Positions 3,788 to 62,594 are shown, counted from the first letter of the stretch. The stretch: DNA of 64,000 bases from Nanobdellota archaeon (GCA_030647125.1 JAUSKC010000013.1:2249-66248), one strand, 5' to 3'. Notes: a model not told the origin generated them from the letters alone. A program made the numbers and translations.

Positions 3788-3788
3788 T

Positions 3789-6436: not shown

Positions 6437-6462
6437 ATATCAATTCTCCGCAGATTATTTAT

Positions 6463-6535
6463 GTCCCGGTAGCTCAGTCGGTAGAGCACATGACTGTTAA
6501 TCATGGGGTCGTAGGTTCGAGTCCTGCTCGGGACG
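6463..6535 (+). tRNA. tRNA-Asn (GTT)
   Basis: Cloverleaf read by hand: acceptor GTCCCGG/TCGGGAC, anticodon arm CATGA-CTGTTAA-TCATG, T-loop TTCGAGT. 73 nt, no encoded CCA. Confidence 0.9.
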
Positions 6536-6572
6536 TTTTATAATTATAGAGGATAATTCTAAAGTTGAGAAA

Positions 6573-7430: not shown

Positions 7431-7431
7431 T

Positions 7432-8127: not shown

Positions 8128-8212
8128 TATTCACAAAAAGAAAGTAATCGTTTATAAAAATTCTCGTTCTTAAAAACAAACATTTTTTAACCACTTTTAT
8201 CCAATAAATTTT

Positions 8213-8488
8213 ATGAAAAAACAATTTTTCACACTATCAAAATGGGTAATAGTTTCAACAGTGATTTTATTCATTTTAAATGTAATTCTCATACTTCAAC
8301 TTATTCCTGTTCTTGAGTCTCAAACATTAAATGCTAAAATAGTAAATGCAATAGTTTCACCACCAAATTTTATAATAGAAGATCTTTTAGGAATTAACAG
8401 CATTAAATTTTTTGATATTTTAACTTGGATACTTCAATTTATTTACGATTACATTCTAATCCTTATCATAAGATATATAATAAAATGA
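8213..8488 (+). CDS. hypothetical small membrane protein
   Basis: ORF with hydrophobic helices. ATGA overlap with the mnmA start. Confidence 0.4.
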   Translation: MKKQFFTLSKWVIVSTVILFILNVILILQLIPVLESQTLNAKIVNAIVSPPNFIIEDLLGINSIKFFDILTWILQFIYDYILILIIRYIIK

Positions 8489-10274: not shown

Positions 10275-10838
10275 ATGGAATTAAAAACAGCAATTCAAAA
10301 ACGGCACAGCACCCACAAATTCTCATCAAAAAAACCTGACTGGAGAGATATTATTGAATCACTTGACTATTCGCGTTTCGCACCGATGGCCGGAGACATT
10401 TATAATTTAAAATGGATATTAATAGAAGACAAAGAAAAAATCCAAAAGATTGCGAAAGCTGCGCAGCAAAATTTCATTGCAACCGCGCACTACCTTGTCG
10501 TCGCTTGTTCAGAACCAAAACTAACAGTTAATGCTTACGGTGAGAGAGGAGAAAAATACACTCGCCAGCAAGCCGGAGCGGCAATTCAAAATTTCCTTCT
10601 TGCGTTAGAAGAAAGAGGCCTGGCAACTTGTTGGATAGGACATTTCGTTGATAATCAAATTCAAAATATCCTTCACATTCCAGGAGACATAGAAATAGAA
10701 GCAGTCTTCCCTATCGGATACGAATATCCTGGCATTCACAGAAGAAAAAGAAAAATCGAACTTGACAGAATAACTTATTATCATAAGTGGAAAGAAGAAA
10801 AAATGAGGCGCCCTCCAGAGCCAAGAAGAAACGCGTAA
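10275..10838 (+). CDS. nitroreductase-family protein
   Basis: RHSTHKFSSKKP start motif and overall nitroreductase-fold pattern (QQAGAAIQNFLLALEERGLATCWIG). Confidence 0.7.
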   Translation: MELKTAIQKRHSTHKFSSKKPDWRDIIESLDYSRFAPMAGDIYNLKWILIEDKEKIQKIAKAAQQNFIATAHYLVVACSEPKLTVNAYGERGEKYTRQQAGAAIQNFLLALEERGLATCWIGHFVDNQIQNILHIPGDIEIEAVFPIGYEYPGIHRRKRKIELDRITYYHKWKEEKMRRPPEPRRNA

Positions 10839-30393: not shown

Positions 30394-31437
30394 TCAAATC
30401 CCTTTTTCAATTCTCTCTCTAAATAATTCTAAATCCTCCAAGCGCACTTTCGCCCCGACGGCATCTTCATGCCCTCCCCCAGTTGCGCCTTCTAATCCAT
30501 CAATCGCTTTAAGAATAACCTTCTTAACGTTTTTCCCTCGAACAGAAATATTTGCTTTAATTCCTGTAACATAAACAACAATAACTATTTTTTCTGGAAA
30601 CAAGTACATTAATTCATTTGACAAATCAGAACTTATGCTCAAATCCCCTCCATACTGGAAAAACAAAATCTTATTTTCTTTATTGTAAACCTCTTTTGCT
30701 TTTTCAATTAATTTTCTATAACGCACCTCAATTTGGTCGAACTTGCTATGCATAGAATAATTTTTATTATTTGATTCTAGAACATCTCCCGGACTTCGCG
30801 CTTTCATAAGATATTTTATCATTGAAACAACATTTGTCGTGCTGTCTTTCAAGCCAAAATTAAAAATTCGCGCAACTCTTCCAATTTCAGTGGTGTAAAA
30901 AACTTCAAAAGCATTTTTTGTCTTAACTCCCAATTCAGGGAAGTTCTTTAAAAAATCCTTGTAAAAGGAAGGCATATAACTGTCAGAAATGCACCCTACA
31001 ACCGCAATCCACAAGTCCTCTTTTCTTGTTTTTTTAACAACTTGCCAGCACAAAGCCGTCGTCGGTTCAGAACTCTTTTTCTTGTTCAAAACTGGATTAT
31101 AATAATGCACAAATTCAGGAACAACAGAATCAACATCATGATGATCAATCCACACAACAGGGATATTAACTTTTTCAACTTCATCAAAAAATTCCTTTGA
31201 CACAAGCGGCTTATCAAGAATAAAAATATAATCAGCTTTTAATTCCACAACTCTCCTAAAATAATCCTTAGACATTTCCGGGAACGAACGAACTGGAACT
31301 CCCTTGCCTCTTCCTAAAAACCTTTGCAGCAGCAAAAAAGCGCTTAGTCCATCCGCATCATTGTCAAAAAAGAAAACTGGATTTTGCGCTTTGGCCAAAT
31401 GCCCGTTAATTTCATCAACTTGTTTTTTCGTTAACAT
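30394..31437 (-). CDS. stand-alone DHH/DHHA1 phosphoesterase (NrnA/Pde2-like)
   Basis: FFFDNDADG (motif I), WIDHHD (DHH) and ATGGGHEDAVGA (DHHA1 GGGH). The start overlaps the disA stop as TAATG. Confidence 0.8.
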   Translation of the reverse strand: MLTKKQVDEINGHLAKAQNPVFFFDNDADGLSAFLLLQRFLGRGKGVPVRSFPEMSKDYFRRVVELKADYIFILDKPLVSKEFFDEVEKVNIPVVWIDHHDVDSVVPEFVHYYNPVLNKKKSSEPTTALCWQVVKKTRKEDLWIAVVGCISDSYMPSFYKDFLKNFPELGVKTKNAFEVFYTTEIGRVARIFNFGLKDSTTNVVSMIKYLMKARSPGDVLESNNKNYSMHSKFDQIEVRYRKLIEKAKEVYNKENKILFFQYGGDLSISSDLSNELMYLFPEKIVIVVYVTGIKANISVRGKNVKKVILKAIDGLEGATGGGHEDAVGAKVRLEDLELFRERIEKGI

Positions 31438-32540
31438 TATATCTTCTTACCAACCATAATCTTTTCTTTCAAGCTGTTAATCTCTTTATTGAAAAATTCA
31501 ACCATCTCTTCGCTTCCAAAGATTTCCAAAAGCTCGTCGTTATCAGCTGCTAGAGTTCTGTCAAGCGTTTTGAACTTTGAAATTAAAGCGGTTGTATATC
31601 GCTCAAGCAAATTTGTTCTCCCCAAGATTCTCAAGCCCGAAGGACTGACTGATTCGTCATGCAGCTCTTCAAAAAGCATTCGTGAAATATTATTACTCTC
31701 GAGCAGAAAATCAAAATTAAATTTATCTAAAGTATTCGCCTTATTATTCCATTCATTTCCAAAATAATCTTTTAAAAGAATTTCCTCCTCTTTTCCTAAA
31801 TTTCCTGTCAATTCTTTAAGTCGCATACTTACAATCATCCCTTCCTTTCCAAGTTCAATCAAATATCTTTTTACAATTTCAGAAATTCTTTTTATAATTT
31901 CAAGTCGCTGCAAAACATTCGAAACATCTTCTATAGTTACCAACCCATTAATTTCAAGAATGTTAAAATTAGACATTAAATCATTAAAAGTCTCCCTTTG
32001 TTTTTCCAGAATTTGCAACGTCTCAGCCGCTCTTCTTAAAATTTCAGAGCTGTGATCAAGTTCATATTTCATATCACTATAATACAAAGAAATTTTATTT
32101 TTTCTTTCAGAGACAGCAATTACAATTGTTTTTGCTTTCTTCGCGGTCCTTTCAGCCGCCTTATGCCGCGTTCCCGTCTCTCTCGTCGGAATGTCAACTC
32201 CAGGGAAAAGCAAGGTATTTCCAAATAAAATTCTTTTTCCGTCATTGCTTAAAATTATTGCCCCATCCATCTTGCACAATTCAACCAACTTTTGCGCGCT
32301 GAATTTTGAATTTATTTTAAAACCCCCATCTGCAAGATCAAGAACATTTCCATTGTCAAAGACAATCAGCGCACCCATTCTTGCTCTTAACAAATCATCC
32401 AACCCCGTCCTTAATGAAGTTCCTGGCGCGAACATCTTAAGCACGTCGACAAAGTCCTTTTCTTTTTCAAAATTCTTAAGAGGATTCTCTGTAACAACAA
32501 TCTCCTGCACCTCTTTAATATCAGAATTATTTTCTTCCAT
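31437..32540 (-). CDS. disA: DisA-type diadenylate cyclase (DNA integrity scanning protein)
   Basis: GALIVF, ELCKMDGAIILSNDGKRIL and TRETGTRHKAAERTAKKAKTIVIAVSERKNKISLY, nearly colinear with bacterial DisA. Size 367 aa. Confidence 0.85.
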   Translation of the reverse strand: MEENNSDIKEVQEIVVTENPLKNFEKEKDFVDVLKMFAPGTSLRTGLDDLLRARMGALIVFDNGNVLDLADGGFKINSKFSAQKLVELCKMDGAIILSNDGKRILFGNTLLFPGVDIPTRETGTRHKAAERTAKKAKTIVIAVSERKNKISLYYSDMKYELDHSSEILRRAAETLQILEKQRETFNDLMSNFNILEINGLVTIEDVSNVLQRLEIIKRISEIVKRYLIELGKEGMIVSMRLKELTGNLGKEEEILLKDYFGNEWNNKANTLDKFNFDFLLESNNISRMLFEELHDESVSPSGLRILGRTNLLERYTTALISKFKTLDRTLAADNDELLEIFGSEEMVEFFNKEINSLKEKIMVGKKI

Positions 32541-40009: not shown

Positions 40010-43000
40010 TCATTCCAAATAAATCCCCGGCTTGCCCGGCTTAACTTTTTTGCTTTTTCCGTCCGGATCATATTTATCTTTATCATTAACAGCATAAACT
40101 TTTATATCAAGACCTGTTCGTTTTTTCAACTCATCAACGCTATCAACAAAATTCTTCTTTTCGTTAGGCAAAACATAAACCCAACATTTTGAAACTTCTT
40201 TTCCTTCCCGTTCTTTTATAATTTTAACAACGTGATTTATATCTTCAACAAGCTTTGCAACATCTTGCTCTTGCTTTTCCAAACTCTCATTAATCTTCGC
40301 TTCTTCAACTTTAGGCCATTCAGATGAAGAAATCAGACCAACACCTCCTATTTTCTCCCACATTTCTTCAGCTATGTGCGGGCAAAAAAGAGACAAAAGT
40401 TTCAAACCCTTTTCCAAAACTAATCTATCAGTTTCCAGAGGCAAAGAATTAAACAATTCCCTGACTTTTATAATTGCTAAGTTATATTTGAAATTTTCAA
40501 TCTGGTTCGTCATTTCTTTAATAATCTTATTCAATTTGCTTTCAATTTTAGCGTCTGATTTCTTAACAATCTTAACATTTTGAAAATAATCATAAACTTT
40601 ATTCAAGAATTTGAAGCTTCCAACAAGAACATTCTCATCCCAAAGAGTATCATTTTCAGGAGAAGCCAAACTCATTAAAGCCAAACGCAAAGAGTCCGCG
40701 CCATACTTCTTAATAATATCCAAAGGATTAATCACATTACCTAACGACTTTGACATCTTCTGCCCATCAGCGCCATGCAAAAGCCCTTGATTAAACAATT
40801 TAATAAACGGCTCATCAATTTCAGGAATCAAATCTAAATCCCTCAAGGCCTTTGTAAAAAAACGCGCGTAAATCAAATGCATCGTCGCATGTTCCGCGCC
40901 TCCAATATATTGATCAACAGGCATCCAGTATTTTACTTTATCAATTTCAAAAGGTTTTTTTGAATTTTCCGAGTCCAGATATCTCAAATAATACCAACTC
41001 GAATCAAAGAAAGTATCCATCGTGTCCGTCTCTCGTTTGGCTTTTCCATTACATGAAGGACATTTTACATTAATCCATTTTTCATTTGTTTTCAAAGGAT
41101 TTCCTTTTCCAAATTTAACTTTTTCAGGAAGAACAATAGGCAAGTCACTTTCTTTAATAGGAATAATTCCACACTTATCACAATAAACAACTGGAATAGG
41201 AGTTCCCCAATAACGCTGACGTGAAACCAACCAATCTCTTAATTTAAAATTAACAACCTTGCGTCCTAATTTTTTCTTTATTAAAAATTTAGTAATTTCT
41301 TCTTTAGCTTTTTCACTTTCCACTTCATCAAATTCATCCGAATTAATTAACCATCCTTCTCCAGTATAAGCTTTCGACTCTTTTGTAAAATCAATTTCTC
41401 CTTCCCTTGGCTGAATCACTGCCTTAATTTCAATATTGTATTTTCTTGCAAACAAATAATCCCTTTGGTCGTGAGCAGGCACAGCCATAACCATTCCACT
41501 CCCATAATCAGCGACGACAAAATTGCCGGCATAAACCGGAACTTTTTTATTATTTACAGGGTTTACAGCATAACTTCCTGTAAAGACACCTTCTTTGTCA
41601 AGTTCTTCAAGTTGTTTTTCAGAAACGCCTTTTAATTTTTTCAAGAATTTTTCTACTTCTTTCTTTTGTTTGTTAGAAACTAATTCCATAAGTCGCGGAT
41701 GCTGCGCTGAAACAACCATAAAAGTCACTCCGTAAATAGTATCTGGCCTTGTCGTAAATATAGACCACTTTTCATTTCCAATAATTTCATTTAAAAGTTC
41801 AGGAAATTCTCCTGTTCCCATATCATATATAGTATAATGCCCATGATTTTTTAATTCAATAATTTCGCCGCCCAAAGAATCATGAAAGATCTTAACGCTT
41901 TTCTTACCATCGGCTTCCTCATTATTTGCAGTAAAAATAATTACTTCACCAACTCTATCTTTAATTCCCAAGTCAATATTATAATCATAAAAATCTTTTG
42001 GAGCATTACCAGATTTAGCAATTTTCCAAGGTGCGACTAAAATTAGTTTTTTAATTTTCTTTTTAGTATCACCAAGCCATCTTACTAAAAATGCACAGCC
42101 GCAACTATGTCCAATTAAAACAGAATTCTCATCTATTTTATTTTTTTCGAATTCTTTCTTCCAATTATAATAATCAGCTTTCCAGGCCTCGGGCATTAAA
42201 GGAGAAAAAACCTTAATCTTTCTTTCCTCAAGTTTCTTTTTAATCCAAGGAATCCAATGTTTATCATAAGTTCTTTTTTCTTGAGAATACTCCGCTTTTT
42301 CAGCAGACGGACAACCATGAACAATCACAACATTAGAAAGTTTATTTGAATTTTCAATCTCAAACAAAATCTCCGTCCCTTCCGAACGTCCAATCCAATT
42401 CTTCTGCATCAACTTAATTCTTTCAGGCCAATATAACTTGTCAACCTTATCCAAAAGCTCGTCAGCATAATTTGTCGTTTTGATAAACCATTGTTCAAGT
42501 TGCTTGATTTCAACAGGTGTTTCAGGATGTCTCCAGCAACAACCACCATGAACTTGCTCATTCGCTAAAACCGTCTCACATTTACCACACCAATTAACCG
42601 GCGACTTTTTTCTATAAATTAAACCTTTTTCATAAAGTTTAAGAAAAAAATATTGATTCCATTTATAATATTCCGGCTTTGACGTCACAATCATTTTACT
42701 CCAATCGTAACTCAATCCTAACTTATGCTGTTGATTTACAAAATTTTTTATAGAATTTTCAGTGTACTTTCTAGGATGTTCCCCTGCTTTTATCGCCGCA
42801 TTTTCAGCAGGCAATCCAAAAGCATCGTAACCCATTGGATAAAGAACATTCATCCCTTGCATTCTCTTGAAGCGCGCATAAATATCCCCTATAGTATAAT
42901 TCAAAGCATGGCCCATATGCAGTCCAGCTGCCGATGGATACGGAAACATTTCAAGAACATAAAACTTCTTTTTCTTTTTCGTGCCTGCGGCGTCCGGGGA

Positions 43001-43072
43001 TACTTCAAAGACCTTCTTTTTTTCCCACTTACTCTGCCATTTTGTTTCTATCTTTTTAAAATCATAAACCAT
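40010..43072 (-). CDS. leuS: leucyl-tRNA synthetase, bacterial-type, with a nested alpha/beta-hydrolase domain
   Basis: HMGH (aa 52-55), WIGRSEG (aa 226-232), TTRPDT (aa 440-445), MAVPAHDQRD and KMSKS. 1020 aa. Confidence 0.9.
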   Translation of the reverse strand: MVYDFKKIETKWQSKWEKKKVFEVSPDAAGTKKKKKFYVLEMFPYPSAAGLHMGHALNYTIGDIYARFKRMQGMNVLYPMGYDAFGLPAENAAIKAGEHPRKYTENSIKNFVNQQHKLGLSYDWSKMIVTSKPEYYKWNQYFFLKLYEKGLIYRKKSPVNWCGKCETVLANEQVHGGCCWRHPETPVEIKQLEQWFIKTTNYADELLDKVDKLYWPERIKLMQKNWIGRSEGTEILFEIENSNKLSNVVIVHGCPSAEKAEYSQEKRTYDKHWIPWIKKKLEERKIKVFSPLMPEAWKADYYNWKKEFEKNKIDENSVLIGHSCGCAFLVRWLGDTKKKIKKLILVAPWKIAKSGNAPKDFYDYNIDLGIKDRVGEVIIFTANNEEADGKKSVKIFHDSLGGEIIELKNHGHYTIYDMGTGEFPELLNEIIGNEKWSIFTTRPDTIYGVTFMVVSAQHPRLMELVSNKQKKEVEKFLKKLKGVSEKQLEELDKEGVFTGSYAVNPVNNKKVPVYAGNFVVADYGSGMVMAVPAHDQRDYLFARKYNIEIKAVIQPREGEIDFTKESKAYTGEGWLINSDEFDEVESEKAKEEITKFLIKKKLGRKVVNFKLRDWLVSRQRYWGTPIPVVYCDKCGIIPIKESDLPIVLPEKVKFGKGNPLKTNEKWINVKCPSCNGKAKRETDTMDTFFDSSWYYLRYLDSENSKKPFEIDKVKYWMPVDQYIGGAEHATMHLIYARFFTKALRDLDLIPEIDEPFIKLFNQGLLHGADGQKMSKSLGNVINPLDIIKKYGADSLRLALMSLASPENDTLWDENVLVGSFKFLNKVYDYFQNVKIVKKSDAKIESKLNKIIKEMTNQIENFKYNLAIIKVRELFNSLPLETDRLVLEKGLKLLSLFCPHIAEEMWEKIGGVGLISSSEWPKVEEAKINESLEKQEQDVAKLVEDINHVVKIIKEREGKEVSKCWVYVLPNEKKNFVDSVDELKKRTGLDIKVYAVNDKDKYDPDGKSKKVKPGKPGIYLE
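41768..42340 (-). other. RBBP9/YdeN-type serine hydrolase domain inserted in LeuRS (aa ~245-435)
   Basis: VVIVHG..HWIPWIKKKL..VLIGHSCGC (GxSxG, Ser codon 42104-42106)..LILVAPW..NHGHY, colinear with B. subtilis YdeN as I recall it. Confidence 0.7.
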
Positions 43073-53059: not shown

Positions 53060-54382
53060 ATGATATTCAAAAGAAAAACCAAAACAAGAAATTATTTTTT
53101 CCCAAAAAAAATGAGTGGCATAAAAAAAGCAGCTATAGGGGCATTGGCTCTTGGAGCAACAGGATTAGGATTATGGATTTATAGTATAAATTCAGATTTC
53201 GAAAAACATTTCGGAAACCATCAAAGCATACAAAGAATAGATTACTCTTCACAAATTCCCTCTTCTCTTAAAGGATTAAATTTTCCTCAAAAATACGACG
53301 CATTAACTTCACACTCACAAGAAAAAACAACATCACACTCTCTTGAACAAAAAGTTGCACTAGCAAAACCAACTCCAACTTATACTCCAATACCAGAGCC
53401 AACAACAACGCCTAAGACAGAACCAACTCTTAAATATATTATATTAAAAACAGCAAATAAAAGCCTTACATCACCTTCAATACCTCCAGTAGTTTTACCG
53501 ACGCCAAAACCGACAGTAACTCCTACTCCAACACCAATGGCAACTCCTATTCCAACTTATACTCCCACTCCTAGAGCTACACCAACGCCAAGTCTTACAC
53601 CAATTCCAACACCAACGCCAACACCTATTCCTTCAAAAGAAAAAACAAATGGGCCTTCAATTTACACAGTTGCCCTAGCAAATATTGCAGCGGTAAAGGA
53701 ATTAGCACAAAGAGGAAATGAAAGAGTAAAAGAAACATTCTCTTATCTAGGAAAAAAACTAAAAGAAACAGAAGATAACAGGTATAACATAAACAGAAAA
53801 GACATAAGATTATCTACTGAAACAACAAATAGTGTTATTGTAGGAGAACCTAACAGAGTAATGGGAACTCCTTATTTCTATCAATCTATAGGAGAAAATG
53901 GAGTTTCAGTCAATGGAAAGAAAGTTGAAAAAGGATTAGAATTTTTAGCAAGAGAATATGATGAAAATCTTGAAATAATTAGAAATGGGAAAGATATTGA
54001 CTTTGATAGTCCAAGGAAACTTGTTTACGTTCCAATATCAAAAGATGAAAAGGGAATTTGGCATGTCGATTATGACTCTCAATTAGAAGAACATGATATT
54101 TATACTGCAAGACCAATAACTGATAAAGATGTAAAAGATTTTATAGTAATTCCAAAACACGAAAATGATTTGTTAACAGATAAAGATGCAAAGCCAAAAG
54201 AAAAATCATTTTATCTATTTGCAAACGGAACAAGAATTAGCATTCCTGAAATAAAAAGCCCGTCGGGAAATGATTACATCCCACAACATATCTTAATTCC
54301 TAAACCTGCAAAAGAGGTCTATCAGCCAGCAACAGGAAAAATAGGAAAAAGAGGAAATGTCTACATTCCTGTATTACAATAA
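53060..54382 (+). CDS. membrane-anchored surface protein with Pro/Thr-rich linker
   Basis: N-terminal TM helix (AAIGALALGATGLGLWIYSI), PT-rich tract at aa ~103-193 (nt 53366-53640), and a C-terminal roughly 245-aa globular part of unknown family. Confidence 0.6.
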   Translation: MIFKRKTKTRNYFFPKKMSGIKKAAIGALALGATGLGLWIYSINSDFEKHFGNHQSIQRIDYSSQIPSSLKGLNFPQKYDALTSHSQEKTTSHSLEQKVALAKPTPTYTPIPEPTTTPKTEPTLKYIILKTANKSLTSPSIPPVVLPTPKPTVTPTPTPMATPIPTYTPTPRATPTPSLTPIPTPTPTPIPSKEKTNGPSIYTVALANIAAVKELAQRGNERVKETFSYLGKKLKETEDNRYNINRKDIRLSTETTNSVIVGEPNRVMGTPYFYQSIGENGVSVNGKKVEKGLEFLAREYDENLEIIRNGKDIDFDSPRKLVYVPISKDEKGIWHVDYDSQLEEHDIYTARPITDKDVKDFIVIPKHENDLLTDKDAKPKEKSFYLFANGTRISIPEIKSPSGNDYIPQHILIPKPAKEVYQPATGKIGKRGNVYIPVLQ

Positions 54383-54390: not shown

Positions 54391-57300
54391 CTAAACTATT
54401 TGGGTAACCGAATTCGTTGCACTAGAACTATACTCATTATAATACTTAATAACATTAGGGACATGAGTACTTTTTGCACGGATTAACTTTTCTTCCTTAA
54501 CCTTCCCATTTAAATTTTGTACACATTGATCATAATTAATAAAAGTTCCACCAACTTTACAATTACTAACAACAACAGAAGGACCGACATTGTAAGCTAA
54601 AGCCAAAATTCTTGGATTAGTTATTTGATAATTACTCCTTAAACAAGAAACATAACAAGTTCCAACTAAAATATTTCTCCTGTTAGCAATTCCATTAATA
54701 TCAGTCGTACTAGCAAATTGTGAAAGCAATTGCGCTCTGCTCGTAGACAAAGTAGAATAACCTATATTACTCAAATCAGCCGAACATGAAGGAACACAAA
54801 TCCCATCGATAGAATGAGTATTAAGATTAACAAAATCACTTAACATGCCATCTTCTTTTGCAGGAGTCAACTGCATTAAACCGATATCAGGAGTGCTTGC
54901 TGGATTCCAATCACTCTCTTGTGTTATTAAGGCCCTCACAAAATTTGCATTAACATTATATTTACCAGTTACTTCAATAACATAACTTGTCAAAGCGCTT
55001 TCAACATCACTATTGCTCGTAGAAATACGAACATTCTGACTATCAGAACTTAAAACATCATAATTTAAATTAATGCTATCAAAACTTGAAGTAGTTGCAG
55101 TTACTCCTCCACTAGTTCCTGTTTCAGTCGTCGTTCCGCTCGTCTGCGAATTAACAATCATATCAACAACTCCAAGCAAATCAGAATTTGTAACACTTGA
55201 ACTAAAAGTATTAGAAGTAACAGGAATATCTTTCAAATTCTCCCCATCATCAACTTTCCAGACCCCATCATAATAAAAATGATAACTTGTTGAACCGGAA
55301 GTCGCGCTAAAATAAAAGTCCCCTATGCCCAAACTTTGCGAACTTACAATTATATTTGCAATAGATTGTTTATTTTCATTAGTTAAACCAACAAAAGGAT
55401 CAGAAAATGTTCCACTTCCCGTAGTCGACACACCGCCGCCAACTTGATTTGTACTTAGTATGGTCTGTTGTGAAATAGCTTTATTATTTTCATCCTCAAA
55501 ATCCTGCGTCGCCAAAATTCCATAAGCTACTGCTCTCAAGAACAATATCTGTACCTTATTTGTATCCAACAACGATTGAGAAATTAAATTCTCAGTAATG
55601 TAACTTATTTTTTCAGCCGGACTCATTGCATTAATTTTATTCAATTCCATGTTTATATCAAATGAACTCGTCTGACCCAAAGCATTTATAACACTCGAAG
55701 ATAAACCTTGCAATGTATCGTTCTCAATTCCTATTCCTTTAATTGCTTGCTTAACGCTTTGCGTATCAATATAACAATTTAATCCTGCCGTCCCGCAACT
55801 TCCAACTTGAACCCAACGAGCATTTGCCCCTCCATCCAAAGGATCAGTTCCTTTTCCTGGGCTTGAAGTAGAACACACACGAACAATTCCTTGATTGTAC
55901 AATTGCGGATTCAAAACTTGATTCGCGCCTTCTTGAACATTTGGCTGAACTAAACTATAAACACTCGGCGTTCCTGAAACACACTCTTGTTCAGTTTTTA
56001 CTGTCTGCGTCGCTTGCTCTTTCAAATACTGATCATTCAAATAATTCAAAGCAAATGAAGTTGTAACTTTTTGGAAGCCGCAATCATCTTTTCCGTTGAC
56101 AGAAATACACATCTGTTGATATCCTGTCGGAGCAAGAATATCTTTTGTTTCTGATGCCGAGCCGCCACGTTTAATATAACCAGAATCAACAACTAAAAGT
56201 TGATTTGTCTGGTAATAAGAGCTTCCAACTGGCGCCTTCAAGTAAACTTGGAAATAAGCACCTTGATCATTTCCAGAATAAATATGATAAAAGACCTTAT
56301 ACTGCGAAGTTGAAGGCACTGTAGCCGTTGTGTAAGGAATTTCGCTGAACCATCCTTGATATTGATTTGGTGAATCAGGAGCAAGCAAGTTATCTAAGAA
56401 TTTTCCACTATTAGGGTAATTTGCCGACGCGAACGCCTTACAAACTGTGCTTCCAACTTCATTTGTCGACCTAGCTTGGAACGCCTTATACGATTGAGCT
56501 CCATAATAATTAACCATATAATCAATTGAATTCTGCGCATTTGTCCAAGCACTTTGAATTCCTAAATATTCTCCACCGCCATGCGACGTCTTTCCTGAAA
56601 CAACTTCCAAAAGTTTCGGAACTAAAAGATTTGCAACTGGAATTGATTGTCTCCACAAAAATTCACACATATAAATACTATTAATCTCGTCACAAATTCC
56701 AACAGTTCTCCCAGTATCTAAATTATCTTGCAAACACATTTGATAATCTTTCATTACAGAAATTAAATCATCAACTCCTGCTTTAACTCCAGTTAAACAA
56801 ATAGGAACTTTAACTTCCGGGAAATTAGGCAAGCAAAGAGCGACACTTCCTATAATTCCGGATTGAATAACATTATCAACATGGTACGAACCACCTAAAT
56901 CACATCTTGAAGATGGACAAATTACCGGGTCGCAAACATTAAATAATAAATTACAATTTGCAGGACTCATGAAATCAGTGCATTCAATATCCGGAACATT
57001 TGTAGCTGGATTTCCAACTTTAATTGTCTGTCCGTTAATAACAACTTGAGTTACTCCTGCCTTGTATTGTCTGCTAGCTTGAGTAATTGCATTTATCGCT
57101 TGCCTTACTAAACTTTGAGTTTGCCCTTCAGTAAGCCCTGGGAAAGATCCGTAAATCGCTCCAGTTCCAGGATTAAATTCTGTGCAAGTGTCATCGCCAA
57201 ATCCTGAATCAGCTTGTGCTCTCCCATTAGCACCAACATTACAAAGCAAGAAACTTGCAGGAGCTCCTGATTGATCATACGTCGCTGTAGCTCCTCCAAC

Positions 57301-60300
57301 ACCAGCAATGTTAGCCAAAGCGCCAGGCAAAGTCTGTTTAGTATAAGTATACCACCCATTGCTCAAATCAAATGGAACTTGTGCAGGCATTCCTTTGTAA
57401 GGTGCTGTTTCAAAATACTTTACTTGTGCATCAATAAATTTATTATTATAACTTGAACTATCATACTTTACAAAAACAGGATATCTTGATTTCACAAGCT
57501 TAGTATTTTCATCGCTTGCAGCTCCGCCAGCTAAATCATAAACATTATCTGGAACATAATTTCCATTCCCAGCATCCTTCAAACTGACAATATATTCTCC
57601 ACTACTTACAATGGCTCCTGCAACAGGCGTTCCAGAAATTATTCCATAACTATTCGCTCCTGCAACTGCTCCATTATAAACTCCTGGCTTCAAATCTTTA
57701 TCCACAAAAACATTAAAGTTAAGTCCGTTTATTCCTTTGCCCGCAGCTTCACTTACACTATTTGTTATCTTTGTATATGTCTCGCTTCGTGTCTGAATTG
57801 TTTTTAACGTCGAATACAAATTCGCTTTGGCAATTTGTTCTAATTCAGGACTAGGATTGTTTGCCAAAACCGCATTCCACGTCGATATATCTCGAGCTTC
57901 GCTTAACTGAACTTGCCCATCACTATACCCTTTTTGTGTAAAAACACTTTTTACTTCGGCAACATCAATATTATTATTTTGATTATTAGGATCTGTAATA
58001 ACTGCAGGCAAACCACTTGCAATTTGTTGTAATTGTGTTCCTGCATTGCTGTCAGTTACAGGATTTTTACTATACTCTGTAATAATTTGGCTTAATTTAT
58101 CAACATCAGTATTTATCTCGTCATTATTTTCAAGCAGACACGTGCTTACACTAGAATATTTTTTCTGGCTGAATAATTGTTGACATTTAGAATTCCATCC
58201 TCCAGGCCCAGTCATCACGTTTTGTCTAGCAATTGCTTTTCCTCCAGTATTGCTTATGAAATTTGAAACTGTCAAGAAAGCCCCCGTCGTCAAACACGCT
58301 GCCTTAAACCCTGTAACAACTGTTCCAAGATTCTTAGAAATTCCTTCCCATTTGGCAATGCTTTGATTCAAATTATTAATTTTAGATTGAATCTGATCCG
58401 GCGCAAGTTGAATTGCCCGCTTTTCAATTCCAAGTTTAAAACTAAAATTCGCTTGTGAATTAACATTATTTATTTCAGGAATTAAAGATACCTTTGCAAC
58501 TTTATGCAGATTAATTCCTGTTAAAATAATTGTTTTATCCCCAACAGCAACGGCTTTGTTCTTTTGAAGAATAAGATTCTGATTAGACGCAAATCCTGCT
58601 TTATCATCTTTTATAGTTGAAACAGCCTTAACACTTACAGTCGCCGTATTATCATCTAAATTAACTAACTGAATAAATTCGCCGCTGGAAGAATCTTCAT
58701 GCTTTTGTTCCTTTCCAAGTTGCACACTTTCACTCCCAAACAATATATTCGCGCTGTAATCATTCGGCGACGGCTCAACAACATCATTTAATCCAATTGT
58801 CGTAGCAACTCCATTAATCAATAATGTTTTTGAACTTGCTGCCCCATTTGACAAAGCTAAAGTGTCTCCGCACTGATTTTGAACTTGAACTAATAAAGGC
58901 GATGTTGAATAAAGTTGCACGAAACGTCCGCAAAGTTCAGTTGCTTTAGAATATTCATGAACTCCAAATGCAAGTTTTATTGCAGCAAACAAAGAACTCT
59001 CTCCATAAGTTACTCCTCCATTATTTACACTTCCATAAGAACTGACTATTCTATTATAATCACTCAATGCCTTAAAAAAATTGCTTCCTTGCTTATTGCT
59101 GAAATCAAATTTATTAACTCCAGTAGAATATCCCACAACTTTTAAATCACTTCCAAAAACACTCGTCGATAATTTAATCTTTGGATCAACTGTCTGCGCC
59201 GCTCCAAAAGGAACAACTTCTCCTCCCAATATACTAAAAGAAGAAATATCTCCTGCTCTAAATTTAGAATTAATTGTATTTGTAATTGTGCTTAAAGTTG
59301 AGGCCTCTAAATTTGAATTTGTTGTCTCATAAAGATAAACATACAAATCACCTGTGTTCATAGAATCAAGATTTGGTTTTCCACTAGCATCCTTTGAATA
59401 AGAACCAGTATAAACTAAATATGCATTCTGGCCATTTATAGAATGAACTAACTCGCCAACATTCTTCACAATAGGATTGCCCCCTACATCAAGTTTCACC
59501 GACGGACTTGTTATCAAATCAAAACTCTGACTTCCACTATCAGTTGTACATCTTACACTTACTCTCTTATTCAACCCTTGTTTTAGGACATTATAGGCCT
59601 GGCATCTATTTTCTGCAAAACTTTGTCCTTCTGACAAATCAAATACATTTCCATTGATTTCTACTTTTGCAATTGTGCCCGGATTTTGTATATCATCTAA
59701 ATGAACTCTCATATAAGCATTACAATAAAATCCTGGAATTGCAATCTGGCCAGAACTTGCTCCCTTTTGCAAAGTCACACTATAAGTTCTTTGTGTCTTA
59801 TCAGCATAAACAGAAATTGTCGCGTCGTTATTTGTAACATCATTCACTCTCAAATATCCTCTCCCATTCCAAAATCCATACCCAACAAAATTATTATTCC
59901 AATCACTTTCACTTAAAACCGGAAGAACGTATTGTGATTGACCTATGCCAAACGCTTTTTGAATATCATAACGAATCGTCGCTGTCAAGTTTCCTTCGAC
60001 AAAATCTGGCATTGCAGATTCATTTTGTTGTTGTTTCAAAACAATAACTGCATAACCAACATTGCTCAAAACAGGAGAATTTAATAAAGTCCCGCTTGAA
60101 TACGACAAAGCAGCCCTTGCAGGATAAAATCCTATTCCTGAAATAGCAGCCGGCCTTTGTGTTCCTGAAGAAAAACCAATATCCATATGCTCAATTGCCT
60201 TAACGTCAATTAATGGATTTATTTTAGTTGCAACTATCGGACAAAAAACAGGAACATTTTCTTCTTCTAGCAAATCGCTTCTTACCACCATTGGTGTACA

Positions 60301-60510
60301 TCCAAGTGGAGCAATCTGCAAAATAAAATCAGCCCCATTAGCATCACACCTTATATTTGAATACTGCCCGACATTTAATCCTTGAGAATTCAAATAATTA
60401 AAAGCATCCGGCTGAGAATACTGAACATAAGAGCTTGTATAACCAGAAACAAAATTAAATAATAAAATCCCATATAAAAAAATTGTTAAAAAGATAAATT
60501 TTTTATTCAT
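54391..60510 (-). CDS. giant secreted Cys-rich protein (2039 aa) with C-terminal lytic transglycosylase (SLT) domain
   Basis: Sec-type signal MNKKFIFLTIFLYGILLFNFVSG. Uninterrupted 6.1-kb ORF. The C-terminus carries ITQESDW (Glu codon 54916-54918), IGLMQL and LALAYNVGP, which are SLT motifs I-III. Confidence 0.85.
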   Translation of the reverse strand: MNKKFIFLTIFLYGILLFNFVSGYTSSYVQYSQPDAFNYLNSQGLNVGQYSNIRCDANGADFILQIAPLGCTPMVVRSDLLEEENVPVFCPIVATKINPLIDVKAIEHMDIGFSSGTQRPAAISGIGFYPARAALSYSSGTLLNSPVLSNVGYAVIVLKQQQNESAMPDFVEGNLTATIRYDIQKAFGIGQSQYVLPVLSESDWNNNFVGYGFWNGRGYLRVNDVTNNDATISVYADKTQRTYSVTLQKGASSGQIAIPGFYCNAYMRVHLDDIQNPGTIAKVEINGNVFDLSEGQSFAENRCQAYNVLKQGLNKRVSVRCTTDSGSQSFDLITSPSVKLDVGGNPIVKNVGELVHSINGQNAYLVYTGSYSKDASGKPNLDSMNTGDLYVYLYETTNSNLEASTLSTITNTINSKFRAGDISSFSILGGEVVPFGAAQTVDPKIKLSTSVFGSDLKVVGYSTGVNKFDFSNKQGSNFFKALSDYNRIVSSYGSVNNGGVTYGESSLFAAIKLAFGVHEYSKATELCGRFVQLYSTSPLLVQVQNQCGDTLALSNGAASSKTLLINGVATTIGLNDVVEPSPNDYSANILFGSESVQLGKEQKHEDSSSGEFIQLVNLDDNTATVSVKAVSTIKDDKAGFASNQNLILQKNKAVAVGDKTIILTGINLHKVAKVSLIPEINNVNSQANFSFKLGIEKRAIQLAPDQIQSKINNLNQSIAKWEGISKNLGTVVTGFKAACLTTGAFLTVSNFISNTGGKAIARQNVMTGPGGWNSKCQQLFSQKKYSSVSTCLLENNDEINTDVDKLSQIITEYSKNPVTDSNAGTQLQQIASGLPAVITDPNNQNNNIDVAEVKSVFTQKGYSDGQVQLSEARDISTWNAVLANNPSPELEQIAKANLYSTLKTIQTRSETYTKITNSVSEAAGKGINGLNFNVFVDKDLKPGVYNGAVAGANSYGIISGTPVAGAIVSSGEYIVSLKDAGNGNYVPDNVYDLAGGAASDENTKLVKSRYPVFVKYDSSSYNNKFIDAQVKYFETAPYKGMPAQVPFDLSNGWYTYTKQTLPGALANIAGVGGATATYDQSGAPASFLLCNVGANGRAQADSGFGDDTCTEFNPGTGAIYGSFPGLTEGQTQSLVRQAINAITQASRQYKAGVTQVVINGQTIKVGNPATNVPDIECTDFMSPANCNLLFNVCDPVICPSSRCDLGGSYHVDNVIQSGIIGSVALCLPNFPEVKVPICLTGVKAGVDDLISVMKDYQMCLQDNLDTGRTVGICDEINSIYMCEFLWRQSIPVANLLVPKLLEVVSGKTSHGGGEYLGIQSAWTNAQNSIDYMVNYYGAQSYKAFQARSTNEVGSTVCKAFASANYPNSGKFLDNLLAPDSPNQYQGWFSEIPYTTATVPSTSQYKVFYHIYSGNDQGAYFQVYLKAPVGSSYYQTNQLLVVDSGYIKRGGSASETKDILAPTGYQQMCISVNGKDDCGFQKVTTSFALNYLNDQYLKEQATQTVKTEQECVSGTPSVYSLVQPNVQEGANQVLNPQLYNQGIVRVCSTSSPGKGTDPLDGGANARWVQVGSCGTAGLNCYIDTQSVKQAIKGIGIENDTLQGLSSSVINALGQTSSFDINMELNKINAMSPAEKISYITENLISQSLLDTNKVQILFLRAVAYGILATQDFEDENNKAISQQTILSTNQVGGGVSTTGSGTFSDPFVGLTNENKQSIANIIVSSQSLGIGDFYFSATSGSTSYHFYYDGVWKVDDGENLKDIPVTSNTFSSSVTNSDLLGVVDMIVNSQTSGTTTETGTSGGVTATTSSFDSINLNYDVLSSDSQNVRISTSNSDVESALTSYVIEVTGKYNVNANFVRALITQESDWNPASTPDIGLMQLTPAKEDGMLSDFVNLNTHSIDGICVPSCSADLSNIGYSTLSTSRAQLLSQFASTTDINGIANRRNILVGTCYVSCLRSNYQITNPRILALAYNVGPSVVVSNCKVGGTFINYDQCVQNLNGKVKEEKLIRAKSTHVPNVIKYYNEYSSSATNSVTQIV

Positions 60511-62387
60511 TGAAACTCAACCCCCAATCCATTGTTATCATATAAAATATAATTTTCTTGTAACCGCTCAATGCTATTTGGTACAGGAAGTGAACTTGCA
60601 CTTATAACAATTTTATCTGAGTCCTGCAATTCAGATTGTGAAACGTAATAATCTTGCTTTCCTCCTCCAGATAAAACATTCGTTAAACTTTGCTCCGGAT
60701 AATTGATATCAAAACATTTTTCTTGTGTAAATCCAAACAAGCCTCCAACTCCCGACGCTGGAACATCAACACACTGCTGCTGCGTGCTTTCAGGAATAGA
60801 CATGCTTGAATTTTGATAAATAACCACTTGAATATTATACTGCCCTTCACTCAACTCAACACTGTTCTGTCTAGGGAAAACTGCAGTCACTGCACTTCCA
60901 TTTTCTTTATTGAAAGAAATAATTGCATCTCCTCCATAATCCTTTCCATCAACTTTTAATTCCAAATTCTTGCTATACAACTTGCTTAAAACAATATCAA
61001 CTTGGCCTGATTGTGCCTGCGTTACCACATACGTTCCATCTTCATAACCATCGGTCTGCGCAACAACTTTTCCATTAACACATTGAGGAATCTTTCCGTC
61101 CAAATGCCCCCCTTTTGTCTGTCCTATATCACATTGAGTTCCAAAACATTCGAACGAAACATTTGCATCAACCTTATTCAAATTGCTATCATAAACATTT
61201 ACTCCAACATTTGAGTTTGCATACTCGCACAACGAAGTGTCCGTCCCTACTGCTACCGCCCCTACTAAAGATTTCCGAGGATGATTTCCTTGAATTACAA
61301 CTGCAATAGGAAACTGGAAAATAGCGCCGGTAGGATCGTCATAAATCTGAACTAAGACAGGATATTTAACATCATAAACAAAATGGTACGGAACATAACA
61401 AAAGCCCAAAGCCCCCAAACCTTGTTGATTTCCAACCGGATCCGCTTGAAGAACATTCCCATTAGAAGGACTAACTTCGTAAACATGAGGCCAATTCTTA
61501 GACGTTAAGAATTTAACATTTGTATTCGTTCCCAAATCCTCAACAAAATACTGATCTTTCTTACTATTCAAACTATAATCTCCTCCCTTAACTTTAATTG
61601 CTACAATGTTCGCATCAAGTCCGTTTCCTAAATTTTCTAAGACGTCCTCTGCAATCCATGTTTTAGGTGCGCACTGAATTTCAACTCCATCTACCGGAGC
61701 ATAAAGTCTCAAAATATCCAAAGTTCTATTTTCTAAAAATAAATATTTCTGCTCATTGTTATAGACCTTTAATGCATCCGAATACATACTTCCAATGTTT
61801 GAATTAATTGAAATTTTATGGTTTCTTACAAGAACACTTTCATTCCCTTTTCTAATCACTAAATCCATTACCATATCAATTTGAACTTTGCTATCAGAAA
61901 TACTAACATCCGCTTTGGGCTTAGACATATTAATAACCAAACCATCACTATAAAATTCAGAAAAATCACAACTTCTAGCTCGTGCTTCAATAAATTTTGA
62001 TAAATCATTTTCCATACTTGTCATTGAAGGAACTTGTTGTTTCTCAACTCCATTACCTGAAACGTAATACCAATAAGGAATAGGGTTGCCAAGAAAATCC
62101 AACTGCGATGAAAAAGGCGAGAAGCGTGAGCCCGGATAAAATTGAGGCATATAAATATAACCGCCTTGACTTCCAAGAACATTAATTCCTGTCTTCAAAT
62201 CATTTTGCAAACAATTTTGGAAATTAGTGTAGGCAGGTTGCAAATCAGAAGGAATATTGTTGTTACTTACATCAGCAAAAAAAACAAAATACGCTATTAC
62301 GCCAGCAACAATAACTATTCCAAGAATAATAAATATTGTCGCCTGCGCCCTGTTATTTCTAGCAAAATCTCTCCCCTTTTCGAACAT
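60507..62387 (-). CDS. 626-aa surface protein with class III (type IV pilin-like) signal peptide
   Basis: The N-terminus ...ARNNRAQATIFIILGIVIVAGVIAYFVFF fits the [KR][GA]|Q + hydrophobic pattern. The remainder is beta-rich and Cys-containing. ATGA overlap with the giant gene. Confidence 0.75.
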   Translation of the reverse strand: MFEKGRDFARNNRAQATIFIILGIVIVAGVIAYFVFFADVSNNNIPSDLQPAYTNFQNCLQNDLKTGINVLGSQGGYIYMPQFYPGSRFSPFSSQLDFLGNPIPYWYYVSGNGVEKQQVPSMTSMENDLSKFIEARARSCDFSEFYSDGLVINMSKPKADVSISDSKVQIDMVMDLVIRKGNESVLVRNHKISINSNIGSMYSDALKVYNNEQKYLFLENRTLDILRLYAPVDGVEIQCAPKTWIAEDVLENLGNGLDANIVAIKVKGGDYSLNSKKDQYFVEDLGTNTNVKFLTSKNWPHVYEVSPSNGNVLQADPVGNQQGLGALGFCYVPYHFVYDVKYPVLVQIYDDPTGAIFQFPIAVVIQGNHPRKSLVGAVAVGTDTSLCEYANSNVGVNVYDSNLNKVDANVSFECFGTQCDIGQTKGGHLDGKIPQCVNGKVVAQTDGYEDGTYVVTQAQSGQVDIVLSKLYSKNLELKVDGKDYGGDAIISFNKENGSAVTAVFPRQNSVELSEGQYNIQVVIYQNSSMSIPESTQQQCVDVPASGVGGLFGFTQEKCFDINYPEQSLTNVLSGGGKQDYYVSQSELQDSDKIVISASSLPVPNSIERLQENYILYDNNGLGVEFQ

Positions 62388-62428
62388 AATTAAAATATGA
62401 AAATTACTTATATAAACATTATGATAAA

Positions 62429-62500
62429 TGGCCCTGCGCGGAATTGAACCGCGGTCTCATCCACGTCAAGGATGCGTCTTAGCCGTTGGACTACAAGGCC
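62429..62500 (-). tRNA. tRNA-Val (GAC)
   Basis: Reverse complement GGCCTTGTAGTCCAACGGCTAAGACGCATCCTTGACGTGGATGAGACCGCGGTTCAATTCCGCGCAGGGCCA. Anticodon loop TTGACGT. Confidence 0.85.
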
Positions 62501-62594
62501 ATAAAATTAATTATAAAAACAATTCATAAATCTTTCTTTTATCATTAAAGATTTTACCAATTAACTTTAAAAACCCATCCCATCTATTAAAAAA

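Follow-up and report, generated by a model that had tools for sequence, protein, structure and literature searches.

A candidate membrane-anchored partner of a giant exoprotein with exchangeable cell-wall hydrolase heads in Pacearchaeota and Woesearchaeota

What role does a protein far larger than a pilin, bearing a prepilin-like N-terminus, play beside the gene of a giant secreted protein? The question is raised by a 626-aa protein (here the partner) encoded immediately before a 2,039-aa protein (the giant) in a 64-kb stretch of archaeal DNA, the window of this analysis. The answer we prefer, at a probability of about 45%, is that the partner is a cell-proximal subunit, anchored in the membrane, on which a murein-breaching giant without an anchor of its own docks, the two genes forming a surface module restricted to Pacearchaeota and Woesearchaeota.

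The partner gene and its giant neighbor

The pair lies on the minus strand of the window:

60507..62387, minus strand: partner gene, 626 aa, ATG start, ORF called from sequence
60507..60510, minus strand: ATGA, read from sequence, in which the partner stop overlaps the giant start
54391..60510, minus strand: giant gene, 2,039 aa, 100% identical to NCBI Q7S56_01980 (Nanoarchaeota archaeon)

Both the 626-aa ORF and the overlap of its TGA with the ATG of the giant gene, as described in the initial annotation, were confirmed. The 4-nt overlap recurs in three relatives (L001, L003 and L006) and in about half of related loci, hence it is not universal; in a 93%-identical relative (L007), the ATG of the giant signal peptide lies ~130 nt downstream. 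A giant homolog directly follows the partner gene on the same strand in 83 of 83 related loci, within 200 nt in 70 of them, and the pairing persists in a partner subfamily at ~30% identity (L005). These observations support the partner as a fixed companion gene of the giant. The locus sits within conserved housekeeping synteny, with L44e-S3Ae on one flank and TFB-S8e-tRNase Z on the other, and partner identity across loci is 50%, compared with 63% for ribosomal protein S3Ae at the same loci.

More than 2,056 partner homologs were retrieved by database search, every one annotated as hypothetical and lacking a Pfam assignment; the homology search returned 5,905 clusters at E ≤ 1e-3, and the family includes 386 species representatives. 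The partner itself matches no Pfam-A family at E ≤ 1 and none of the pilin or class III models of Pfam and NCBIfam; within NCBIfam its one hit, to AlkB, is by chance. Models of the pilin and class III type are short and lineage-biased, so that a missing match is weak negative evidence. The partner belongs to an uncharacterised and very conserved family of surface proteins confined to Pacearchaeota and Woesearchaeota ('Nanoarchaeota'). Both groups are tiny symbiotic archaea.

The giant protein is divided as follows:

60442..60510, minus strand: Sec-type signal peptide, aa 1–23 (MNKKFIFLTIFLYGILLFNFVSG|Y), with the same pattern in homologs
55531..60441, minus strand: conserved trunk, aa 24 to ~1660 (~1,650 aa), from alignments and hydropathy
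56611..56982, minus strand: Cys-rich trunk core, aa 1177–1300 (…LFNVCDPVICPSSRC…), the most conserved part, a dense run of invariant columns
54571..55005, minus strand: SLT (lytic transglycosylase) head, aa ~1836–1980, from Pfam PF01464, motifs and MltC alignment

The trunk has no Pfam relative, and a PDB profile search with it was empty. The SLT head scores 27.5 bits against PF01464 (cutoff 21.3; aa 1843–1885) and, in alignment to MltC 9vi7, keeps the catalytic motifs E-S (E1865), GLMQ (1877) and AYNVG (1972; AYNxG), which together identify it as a predicted lytic transglycosylase. Hydropathy reveals no membrane segment in the giant beyond the Sec signal, so this protein would need an anchor from elsewhere. 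Among the 120 closest giant homologs, 37 carry an SLT head, nine carry heads of other families (Amidase_3, Amidase_2+M15_4, VanY, M23, M10 or others), and the remainder (~60%) have no recognised head; every head checked sits C-terminal to the trunk. What co-occurs with the partner is the ~1,650-aa trunk, with SLT as one of several interchangeable heads. The proposal of an anchored component produced together with a secreted lytic one stands with respect to the anchor signal of the partner and the Sec signal of a giant free of membrane segments, while 'lytic' fits only the head, which is unrecognised in most homologs. With no lytic head recognised in ~60% of giants, the main task of the pair may be something other than wall cutting.

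The giant appears to belong to the large murein-like lytic transglycosylases of fam00969 (PMC8204110), a correspondence drawn from the published description of that family. Similar to the proteins in this literature (Castelle et al. 2021; also Rinke 2013, Castelle 2015, Vigneron 2022), it fits in size, lineage and SLT domain. However, the papers examined cover the SLT domain, which they count as a trait that certain genomes possess, and mention neither the upstream partner nor a conserved partner-plus-trunk unit with interchangeable heads. Published work proposes that giant SLT proteins of Pacearchaeota and Woesearchaeota act against bacterial walls; Pacearchaeota are also reported to be over-represented in the size fraction above 2.5 µm, which suggests attachment to hosts.

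The class III-like signal of the partner

Two features make up the N-terminal signal:

62346..62387, minus strand: leader, aa 1–14 (MFEKGRDFARNNRA), ending R-A (-2/-1) at a putative class III cleavage site
62274..62345, minus strand: hydrophobic H-domain, aa 15–38 (QATIFIILGIVIVAGVIAYFVFFA), from hydropathy, model helix and family conservation

At MFEKGRDFARNNRA|QATIFIILGIVIVAGVIAYFVFFA, the partner has R13 at -2, A14 at -1 and Q15 at +1, then A-T-I. The 23 residues between Q15 and D39 (24 including Q15) are uncharged, hydropathy peaks at 3.03 in a 19-residue window, and the median uncharged stretch across the family is 22. In our own regular-expression transcription of the published FlaFind-type rule ([KRDE][GA][ALIFQMVED][ILMVTAS]x3), the window protein is positive for both the pattern and the ~20-residue H-domain directly after the site, and no other ATG-initiated ORF of 50 aa or more in the 64-kb window passes the pattern together with a hydrophobicity filter.

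The wider family bears out the suggested fit to the archaeal prepilin-peptidase pattern. In an alignment of 143 homologs (mean column identity 34%), Gln at +1 and Gly, Ala or Ser at -1 each occur in 138; Lys or Arg occupies -2 in 125, Thr or Ser +3 in 123, and Phe or Tyr +5 in 127 (Phe 110/138, Tyr 17/138, Glu never). The FlaFind-type pattern is found in 119 of the 143, and the family consensus is K-[K/R]-[G/A]↓Q-V-T-I-F…. The leader ranges from 3 to 30 aa and varies freely in both length and sequence, in contrast to the fixed positions -3 to -1. Positions -3 to +13 are far better conserved than the remaining sequence: Q15 is among ~40 positions with at least 90% conservation, and the hydrophobic stretch, the most conserved part of the family, shows about twice the conservation of the partner overall. 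On these alignments, the class III-like N-terminus is real, deeply conserved and no chance fit. We propose that, in the mature partner, the H-domain serves as an N-terminal anchor, either in the membrane or in a filament.

The closest parallel to the site is found in the Epd pilins of Methanococcus maripaludis, which share the basic leader, small -1 residue, Gln at +1, Ser or Thr at +3 and a hydrophobic stretch of ~20 residues. EppA, which requires Gln at +1, acts in Methanococcus on sites RAQI, KGQV, KGQL and KGQI (PMC4371748); the partner has RAQA in the window and KRGQV as the family consensus. However, unlike Epd pilins, in which +5 is Glu, as is typical of EppA substrates, the partner has Phe or Tyr at this position. 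It also differs in having a mature protein of 612 aa, a fold other than that of a pilin, and a location outside any pilus cluster, with no peptidase found in the regions scanned.

Whether this signal is cleaved divides the two best-surviving readings. The partner could carry an ordinary type II signal-anchor that resembles a class III signal and stays uncleaved, still tethering or partnering the giant and involving neither prepilin peptidase nor filament machinery. We consider this unlikely, although it is the strongest of the alternatives. A plain membrane anchor requires only hydrophobicity and flanking positive charge, whereas the small -1 residue in 138 of 143 homologs and the constant Gln at +1, kept at 34% mean identity beside a freely varying leader, point to a protease recognition site beyond a mere positive-inside anchor. 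The site also equals that of proven EppA substrates. In favor of an uncleaved anchor are the lack of any class III or pilin model match and the AlphaFold model, in which a helix at residues 12–41 is followed by a break at 42–49 and then a separate globular domain. The genomic surroundings point the same way. In the window, which covers 64 kb of this genome, Pfam analysis of ~46 ORFs and inspection of the remaining ones revealed no PilB, PilC or prepilin peptidase; a motif scan of 1.3 Mb around the 83 related loci found no class III peptidase, PilB or PilC, and none of these loci has a Walker-A GxTGSGKT ORF within ±10 kb by motif scan. According to one paper, DPANN genomes lack the components of type IV pili; if so, the partner signal might never be cleaved. 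On the other hand, archaeal pilin genes are often unlinked from their assembly machinery, and a 2026 preprint assigns an Epd-type system with its own peptidase to some DPANN; System 1 filament loci are likewise reported from some DPANN. Cleavage of the partner by a class III signal peptidase is what we infer from the conservation of the site.

The ectodomain and the relation to pili

The AlphaFold model of the partner (pLDDT 92) consists of the anchor helix, an α/β domain and generic β-sandwich domains:

61233..62255, minus strand: family-specific alpha/beta ectodomain, aa ~45–385, with motifs SQGGYI, PYWYYVSGN, LRLYAPVDG and GFCYVPYHFVY
60588..61220, minus strand: beta-sandwich region, aa ~390–600 (transthyretin / CarboxypepD_reg / CnaB-like)

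The alpha/beta ectodomain contains Cys 59, 140, 239 and 330, and a search for its structural relatives found none; the beta-sandwich region contains Cys 414, 419, 436, 539 and 558. In the deep alignment, ten partner Cys are invariant or nearly so, which is compatible with five disulfides. The ~590 aa after the signal had been described as beta-rich with paired Cys. This holds for ~390–600, which is all-beta, but ~45–385 is mixed alpha/beta, and the ten conserved Cys are compatible with pairing.

A type IV structural pilin was considered and rejected, as the model has no pilin fold (a long N-terminal α1 helix packed by its C-terminal half on a β-sheet head) and no PilB-type ATPase or PilC/TadC-type platform genes were found nearby. 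The same evidence, with neither pilus ATPase nor peptidase in the window or at the 83 loci, leaves the initial suggestion of a pilus-tip or pilus-associated adhesin without support. In its strongest form, that suggestion would make the partner a true modular pilin or tip adhesin, with its cleaved helix inserted by PilB/PilC machinery into a type IV filament and its ectodomain carrying the giant on the pilus. The signal is of class III type and, as in pilins, conservation peaks in the H-domain; modular and unusually large pilins are known (PMC8179133; 'relatively large pilins' of Haloferax), and the reported System 1 loci would give some DPANN filaments. Nevertheless, assembly genes accompany the pair at none of the 83 loci (motif scan) nor in the window, the structural matches include no type IV pilin, and the helix breaks where one long α1 would continue. 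Only one other ORF in the 1.3 Mb of related DNA bears such a class III signal, which leaves no candidate major pilin nearby, and only a tip would easily accommodate a 585-aa head with a 2,000-aa passenger. This reading is improbable.

Two other systems place large modules behind a class III signal. Similar to the Streptococcus sanguinis PilB, the partner has a class III signal followed by a large functional module; however, no recognisable pilin module separates its helix from the additional domains, and it has no pilus locus. The Sulfolobus bindosome provides precedent for large non-pilin class III substrates, namely sugar-binding proteins dependent on PibD and Bas. As in the partner, a pilin-type signal is found on a protein several times pilin size, and the bindosome works at the cell surface and is no fibre subunit. 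Unlike these proteins, the partner has no substrate-binding-protein fold or signature by Pfam or structural matches and no Bas-like assembly genes nearby, and it pairs with a giant exoprotein, whereas the bindosome pairs with an ABC transporter.

Docking, wall breaching and the remaining readings

In the preferred docking reading, a promoter just past tRNA-Val would drive both genes, probably as a leaderless mRNA. The partner would enter the membrane through its EppA-type class III signal, a class III signal peptidase would probably act at the cytoplasmic face to remove the short basic leader, and the mature protein would start at Gln15, held by the highly conserved ~22-residue hydrophobic helix, either alone or in a small bundle with its own copies or a small membrane protein. 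Outside the cell would stand the family-specific α/β domain, then the β-sandwich 'stalk' domains, with the ten conserved Cys. The giant would be exported through its normal Sec signal, without an anchor of its own, and its ~1,650-aa trunk may dock on the partner, as suggested by the universal adjacency of the genes. At its C-terminal end, the trunk would present an exchangeable head for cutting bacterial peptidoglycan, in this case a lytic transglycosylase, and together the two proteins could allow the archaeon, upon contact, to breach the wall of a bacterium that serves as host or prey.

The logic recalls that of CdiB-CdiA, two-partner secretion and polymorphic toxins, in which a partner of ~600 aa precedes a giant with a long conserved N-terminal part and a variable C-terminal effector. 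The likeness would be one of logic and not of homology: the partner model has no β-barrel, its structural matches include no Omp85 protein, and Pfam gives no hit, so that the 16-stranded barrel of TpsB/CdiB and its Omp85/POTRA architecture are missing. The heads of the giants are cell-wall hydrolases, whereas those of the toxins are intracellular toxins, and no immunity gene follows the giant. No outer membrane is known in Pacearchaeota or Woesearchaeota.

Very unlikely, in our estimate, is an envelope lattice like SlaA/SlaB of the Sulfolobales, with the partner as membrane stalk, the giant as outer surface-layer sheet and the lytic heads as decorations. The pair is universal, syntenic, part of the core genome and nearly as conserved as ribosomal proteins, and it likewise combines a membrane-anchored, β-sandwich-rich protein with a far larger, anchor-less secreted one; SlaB is even among the structural matches of the partner. 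However, that match is at the level of a generic β-sandwich (TM-scores 0.13–0.17). The anchor of SlaB is a C-terminal helix following a coiled coil, at the opposite end from that of the partner, which has no such succession of β-sandwich, coiled coil and C-terminal TM helix. S-layer proteins are usually fast-evolving and Cys-poor, whereas the giant trunk holds an almost invariant Cys-rich core, and swappable enzymatic heads are foreign to S-layers. Least probable is a maturation or export helper, in which the partner acts as a membrane-bound chaperone, disulfide-folding or release factor rather than a permanent anchor: the coupled gene just before the giant, as for helpers in two-partner systems, the Cys-rich extracellular nature of both proteins and the room for an activity in an α/β domain of no known fold relative are outweighed by the absence of thioredoxin-like, protease and chaperone signatures from the partner and by the stalk-like β-sandwich domains, of the kind that structural surface proteins typically have, that make up about half of it.

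A bolder extension of the docking reading is possible but doubtful. Partner and trunk might form the core of an unrecognised archaeal machine that breaches walls on contact and is shared by essentially every member of the Pacearchaeota and Woesearchaeota. In such a machine, class III-processed partner helices would make up the base as a short bundle resembling a type IV filament, perhaps together with a conserved 63–66-aa membrane protein, and the trunk would be a reach-out arm with polymorphic murein-hydrolase heads. If so, these archaea would usually have bacteria as hosts or prey, and the presence or absence of GH23/SLT, now used as a trait, would under-report the system.

The region upstream of the pair holds two further features:

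62428..62501, minus strand: tRNA-Val (anticodon GAC), from ARAGORN
62408..62416, minus strand: TATA-box-like archaeal element TTTATATAA, read from sequence

The tRNA lies 40 nt from the partner ATG and not 42 nt as first given. The center of TTTATATAA is ~25 nt upstream of the ATG, and by the spacing of TATA box and start site common to archaeal promoters, the partner transcript is probably leaderless, starting at or next to the ATG. The two extra small genes present upstream in most relatives, for a 63–66-aa two-TM protein and a 45-aa ORF, are absent at the window locus, which counts against the docking reading; a tRNA occupies the equivalent position at the related locus L001.

Partner gene and its class III-type signal

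The initial annotation described a 626-aa open reading frame, the partner, whose stop codon overlaps the start of a 2,039-aa gene, the giant, and the sequence agrees (window coordinates):

54391-60510, minus strand: giant ORF, 2,039 aa (ORF reading)
60507-62387, minus strand: partner ORF, 626 aa, ATG start (ORF reading)
62428-62501, minus strand, shared with the partner: tRNA-Val(GAC) (ARAGORN)

The overlap is an ATGA tetranucleotide in which the TGA of the partner meets the ATG of the giant. The tRNA-Val gene does lie close upstream of the partner ATG, as described, but at 40 nt by ARAGORN rather than 42 nt. This spacer holds TTTATATAA, centered 25 nt 5' of the ATG. On a leaderless transcript, the TATA box of an archaeon is expected at about this distance; TTTATATAA may be such a TATA-box-like element, and the partner transcript is probably leaderless. 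Both genes have a GC content of 36%, versus 34% for the window, and are native genes with a base composition like that of their surroundings.

The partner N-terminus reads MFEKGRDFARNNRA ahead of the putative cleavage site and QATIFIILGIVIVAGVIAYFVFFA after it, with Arg at -2, Ala at -1, and Gln at +1 followed by 23 further uncharged residues. It is the sole ORF in the window that passes a FlaFind-style pattern and hydrophobicity filter. Conservation of the signal was counted in an alignment of 143 full-length family members with a mean column identity of 34%, among whose best-conserved features the site ranks.

Residues at the putative processing site of the partner family (number of members, alignment of 143)
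Position -3: K, 102
Position -2: K/R, 125
Position -1: G/A/S, 138
Position +1: Q, 138/143
Position +3: T/S, 123
Position +5: F/Y, 127

Each of the twelve positions after the site is mostly a single hydrophobic residue, and the leader ahead of it, 3 to 30 residues long, is unconserved. To judge from this alignment, the signal is genuinely of class III type and under functional constraint, and the prepilin-like N-terminus first proposed for the partner is upheld, in an EppA-like form. An uncleaved signal anchor, which would leave the docking role discussed below unchanged, could keep the same hydrophobic stretch, but a plain anchor has no need of the small residue at -1 or the invariant Gln at +1, both of which favor a protease recognition site. 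This alternative is rather unlikely, and the leader is presumably cleaved.

The partner site has the same form as those of the Epd pilins of Methanococcus maripaludis, which EppA cuts at RAQI, KGQV, KGQL, and KGQI with Gln at +1 required (PMC4371748). One clear difference is at +5, where EppA substrates have Glu and the partner family has an aromatic residue. A search of the window and of 1.3 Mb from related loci found one other ORF with a partner-type signal. This 272-aa ORF, directly 3' of the giant in related locus L062 (18726-19544; signal KRGQVTIFIII), is a distant paralog with 24% identity to the first ~170 residues of the partner (E 2e-6), and its family comprises 4 database clusters.

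Conservation of the partner-giant pair

When one genome was scanned per species, at least 386 species representatives were found to contain a relative of the partner, and all are labeled Pacearchaeota, Woesearchaeota or Nanoarchaeota save for one mis-binned contig. The exception (L065, DATKUW010000047.1, 'Bacillota bacterium') has the partner-giant pair alongside archaeal S3Ae, L44e, and TFB, which marks it as archaeal DNA mis-binned into a bacterial MAG. A 90%-clustered database holds >2,000 homologs, all 'hypothetical', none with a Pfam domain, and named as Nanoarchaeota, Pacearchaeota or 'archaeon'. A profile search of 50%-identity cluster representatives returns 5,905 clusters at E<=1e-3, of which 710 reach E<=1e-30.

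Comparisons of these loci provide evidence that the two genes travel together. First, on contigs of 401 kb and 347 kb, the gene after the partner homolog, of 2,006 or 2,334 aa, overlaps it by 4 nt. Second, this arrangement recurs with more distant partners, at 37% and ~30% identity. Third, in 83/83 non-redundant loci the partner is followed, in its own orientation, by a homolog of the giant's N-terminus, at <200 nt in 70 and <1.5 kb in 13; this census was made by tblastn, as a strict-regex census undercounted and was dropped. The giant has a classical Sec signal (…FNFVSG|Y) and no further hydrophobic segment, and once exported it would have to be held at the cell by something else. Together with the invariable adjacency, this bears out the earlier suggestion of an anchored component paired with a secreted one.

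The setting of the pair is conserved as well, with L44e and S3Ae divergent upstream and TFB, S8e, and tRNase Z downstream. Partner identity is 50% across loci where ribosomal protein S3Ae reaches 63%. For a surface protein this degree of conservation is uncommon; it suggests that the partner belongs to a machine under constraint and is not an adhesin in rapid evolution. The ATGA overlap is common among relatives, though not universal. In the 93%-identical locus L007 (JBBSYJ010000019.1), a ~130-nt insertion separates the partner stop from the giant's signal-peptide ATG (10324-10460), and either the ATGA coupling is lost or the giant has a 45-codon N-terminal extension instead. The same locus contains ~5.8 kb of extra DNA between L44e and tRNA-Val (~2534-8321) relative to the window. 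In L016, L033, and L047, a gene of 235-288 aa (e.g. MEKDNLKVTSKIIVFQNKKIRRIWHNNEWYF…) splits the pair by ~0.9-1.2 kb.

Two small genes recur upstream of the partner, as in the related loci L001 and L003:

L001, 9579-9770, and L003, 9542-9742, same strand as the partner: gene for a 63-66-aa two-TM protein
L001, 9874-10011, and L003, 9874-10011: 45-aa ORF

The two-TM gene lies ~200 nt 5' of the partner, on its strand, in ~60/73 related loci, and the 45-aa ORF, which by sequence has a ribbon-helix-helix-like look, overlaps the partner start in 34. Both may belong to the partner-giant operon. They are absent from the window and L007, where tRNA-Val abuts the partner.

Partner fold, giant architecture, and a putative docking role

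Searches of Pfam, NCBIfam, and PDB sequences place the partner in no family, with zero matches to Pfam and NCBIfam models, pilin models included; weak matches to AlkB, RNA polymerase alpha, and PARP14 are at chance level. An AlphaFold model from the 143-sequence alignment (pLDDT 92.1, pTM 0.76) supersedes one from 35 close homologs (pLDDT 71). It comprises a helix at 12-41, a break at 42-49, a helix at 50-73, a mixed α/β region to ~385, β-sandwich domains at ~390-600, and a final helix. The partner thus presents a single N-terminal anchor helix and a cysteine-conserving, extracellular-type ectodomain with stalk-like β-sandwich domains. Whole-chain TM-scores against structural matches are <=0.19, no type IV pilin is among those matches, and structure comparison found no relative of the N-terminal α/β domain.

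The partner had been proposed to be a pilus-tip adhesin, which is not borne out by the evidence at hand, as it has no pilin fold match, no Pfam or NCBIfam match, and no pilus genes nearby. Pfam searches of ORFs in the 64-kb window found no PilB, PilC or peptidase A24 genes, and a scan for motifs over the 1.3 Mb surrounding the 83 related loci gave no candidate for a secretion ATPase or A24 peptidase. The remainder of the window is housekeeping in character, with aminoacyl-tRNA synthetases, GatDE/GatCAB, FtsZ, TFB, TFE, a rhomboid protease, and a DisA-type cyclase. The literature is divided on whether these archaea possess pilus or class III machinery: one preprint states that DPANN genomes lack type IV pilus components, whereas a 2026 preprint describes an Epd-type 'system 1', its own peptidase included, in some DPANN. 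The evidence points away from the partner as a pilin or pilus-tip protein, and a true pilus-borne modular pilin is improbable.

The giant consists of a trunk of ~1,650 residues, 38-51% identical in alignments, with an almost invariant Cys-rich core at ~1177-1300, followed by a variable C-terminus, the head. The trunk has no relatives in Pfam or the PDB, including by PDB profile search, and partner and giant show no homology (hhalign probability 0.7%). In the window, the head is a lytic transglycosylase (SLT) domain above the Pfam threshold that keeps the E-S, GLMQ, and AYNxG motifs. Among the 120 closest giant homologs, SLT is present in 37, at times with M10, M23, GDSL or polysaccharide deacetylase; nine have other domains (Amidase_3, Amidase_2+M15_4, VanY, M23+Amidase_3, M10, PF07759, PF04536); and 74 have no recognizable head. 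The L001 and L003 giants have no Pfam match at all. Direct scans place heads C-terminal to the trunk, as with Amidase_3 at 1729-1925 of 2,167 aa and VanY at 2595-2728 of 2,776 aa.

It is plausible, at a probability of roughly 45%, that the partner is a class III-processed, membrane-anchored docking subunit for a giant that presents its head to the bacterial wall. A class III peptidase would take off the leader so that the mature partner begins at Gln15, and the conserved helix would hold it in the membrane, singly or as a small bundle. The giant trunk would dock on the partner ectodomain, and the assembly would offer the head to the bacterial cell wall upon contact. In function, the Sulfolobus bindosome proteins come closest as a precedent, with class III signals on large non-pilins; the SlaA/SlaB and CdiB/CdiA pairs are comparable in logic only. 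An S-layer-like lattice of partner and giant would also suit an anchored and secreted pair, but is still less probable than a pilin, and a maturation helper, which the strict adjacency would also allow, is the least probable role for the partner.

Giants appear to correspond to the proteins described in some Pacearchaeota and Woesearchaeota as 'large murein-like lytic transglycosylase' (fam00969), for which bacterial wall attack has been proposed (PMC8204110, PMC9723730, PMC10936187); the transglycosylase is reported absent from one study's Pacearchaeota (PMC11537232). Class III signals on non-pilins were also known. The literature searched on these giants mentions neither the partner nor a partner-trunk unit with swappable heads. 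Three things are new relative to it: the partner family, the EppA-type signal that this family carries in DPANN, and its co-occurrence with the trunk, not with the lytic domain. These results point to a conserved unit other than the giant 'murein transglycosylase' noted in some genomes, namely a two-gene pair of class III-signal partner and ~1,650-aa trunk, always in the same core-genome location and with interchangeable peptidoglycan-cutting heads. Few uncultured archaea are as widespread as Pacearchaeota and Woesearchaeota. The pair offers concrete, testable targets in the cleavage of the signal, the interface of partner and trunk, and the action of the heads on sacculi, and it could serve as a marker in antibody work, in cryo-ET or in predicting host range. 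The finding would extend class III signals to new non-pilin cargo in DPANN archaea.

Other features of the window

A 440-aa ORF convergent with the giant (53060-54382, plus strand) belongs to no Pfam family; it combines a single TM segment at its N-terminus with a stretch rich in Pro and Thr, and is another uncharacterized surface protein adjoining the partner-giant module. The 1,020-aa leucyl-tRNA synthetase (40010-43072, minus strand) contains an α/β-hydrolase stretch at aa 270-426 (Ser_hydrolase, PF06821, E 1.2e-12) directly preceding the editing domain (PF13603, aa 433-597), an unusual insertion for LeuRS. A DisA-type diadenylate cyclase (DAC + DisA-linker; 31437-32540, minus strand) lies immediately 5' of a DHH/DHHA1 phosphoesterase (30394-31437, minus strand), and the two look like a compact make-and-break pair for cyclic-di-AMP.
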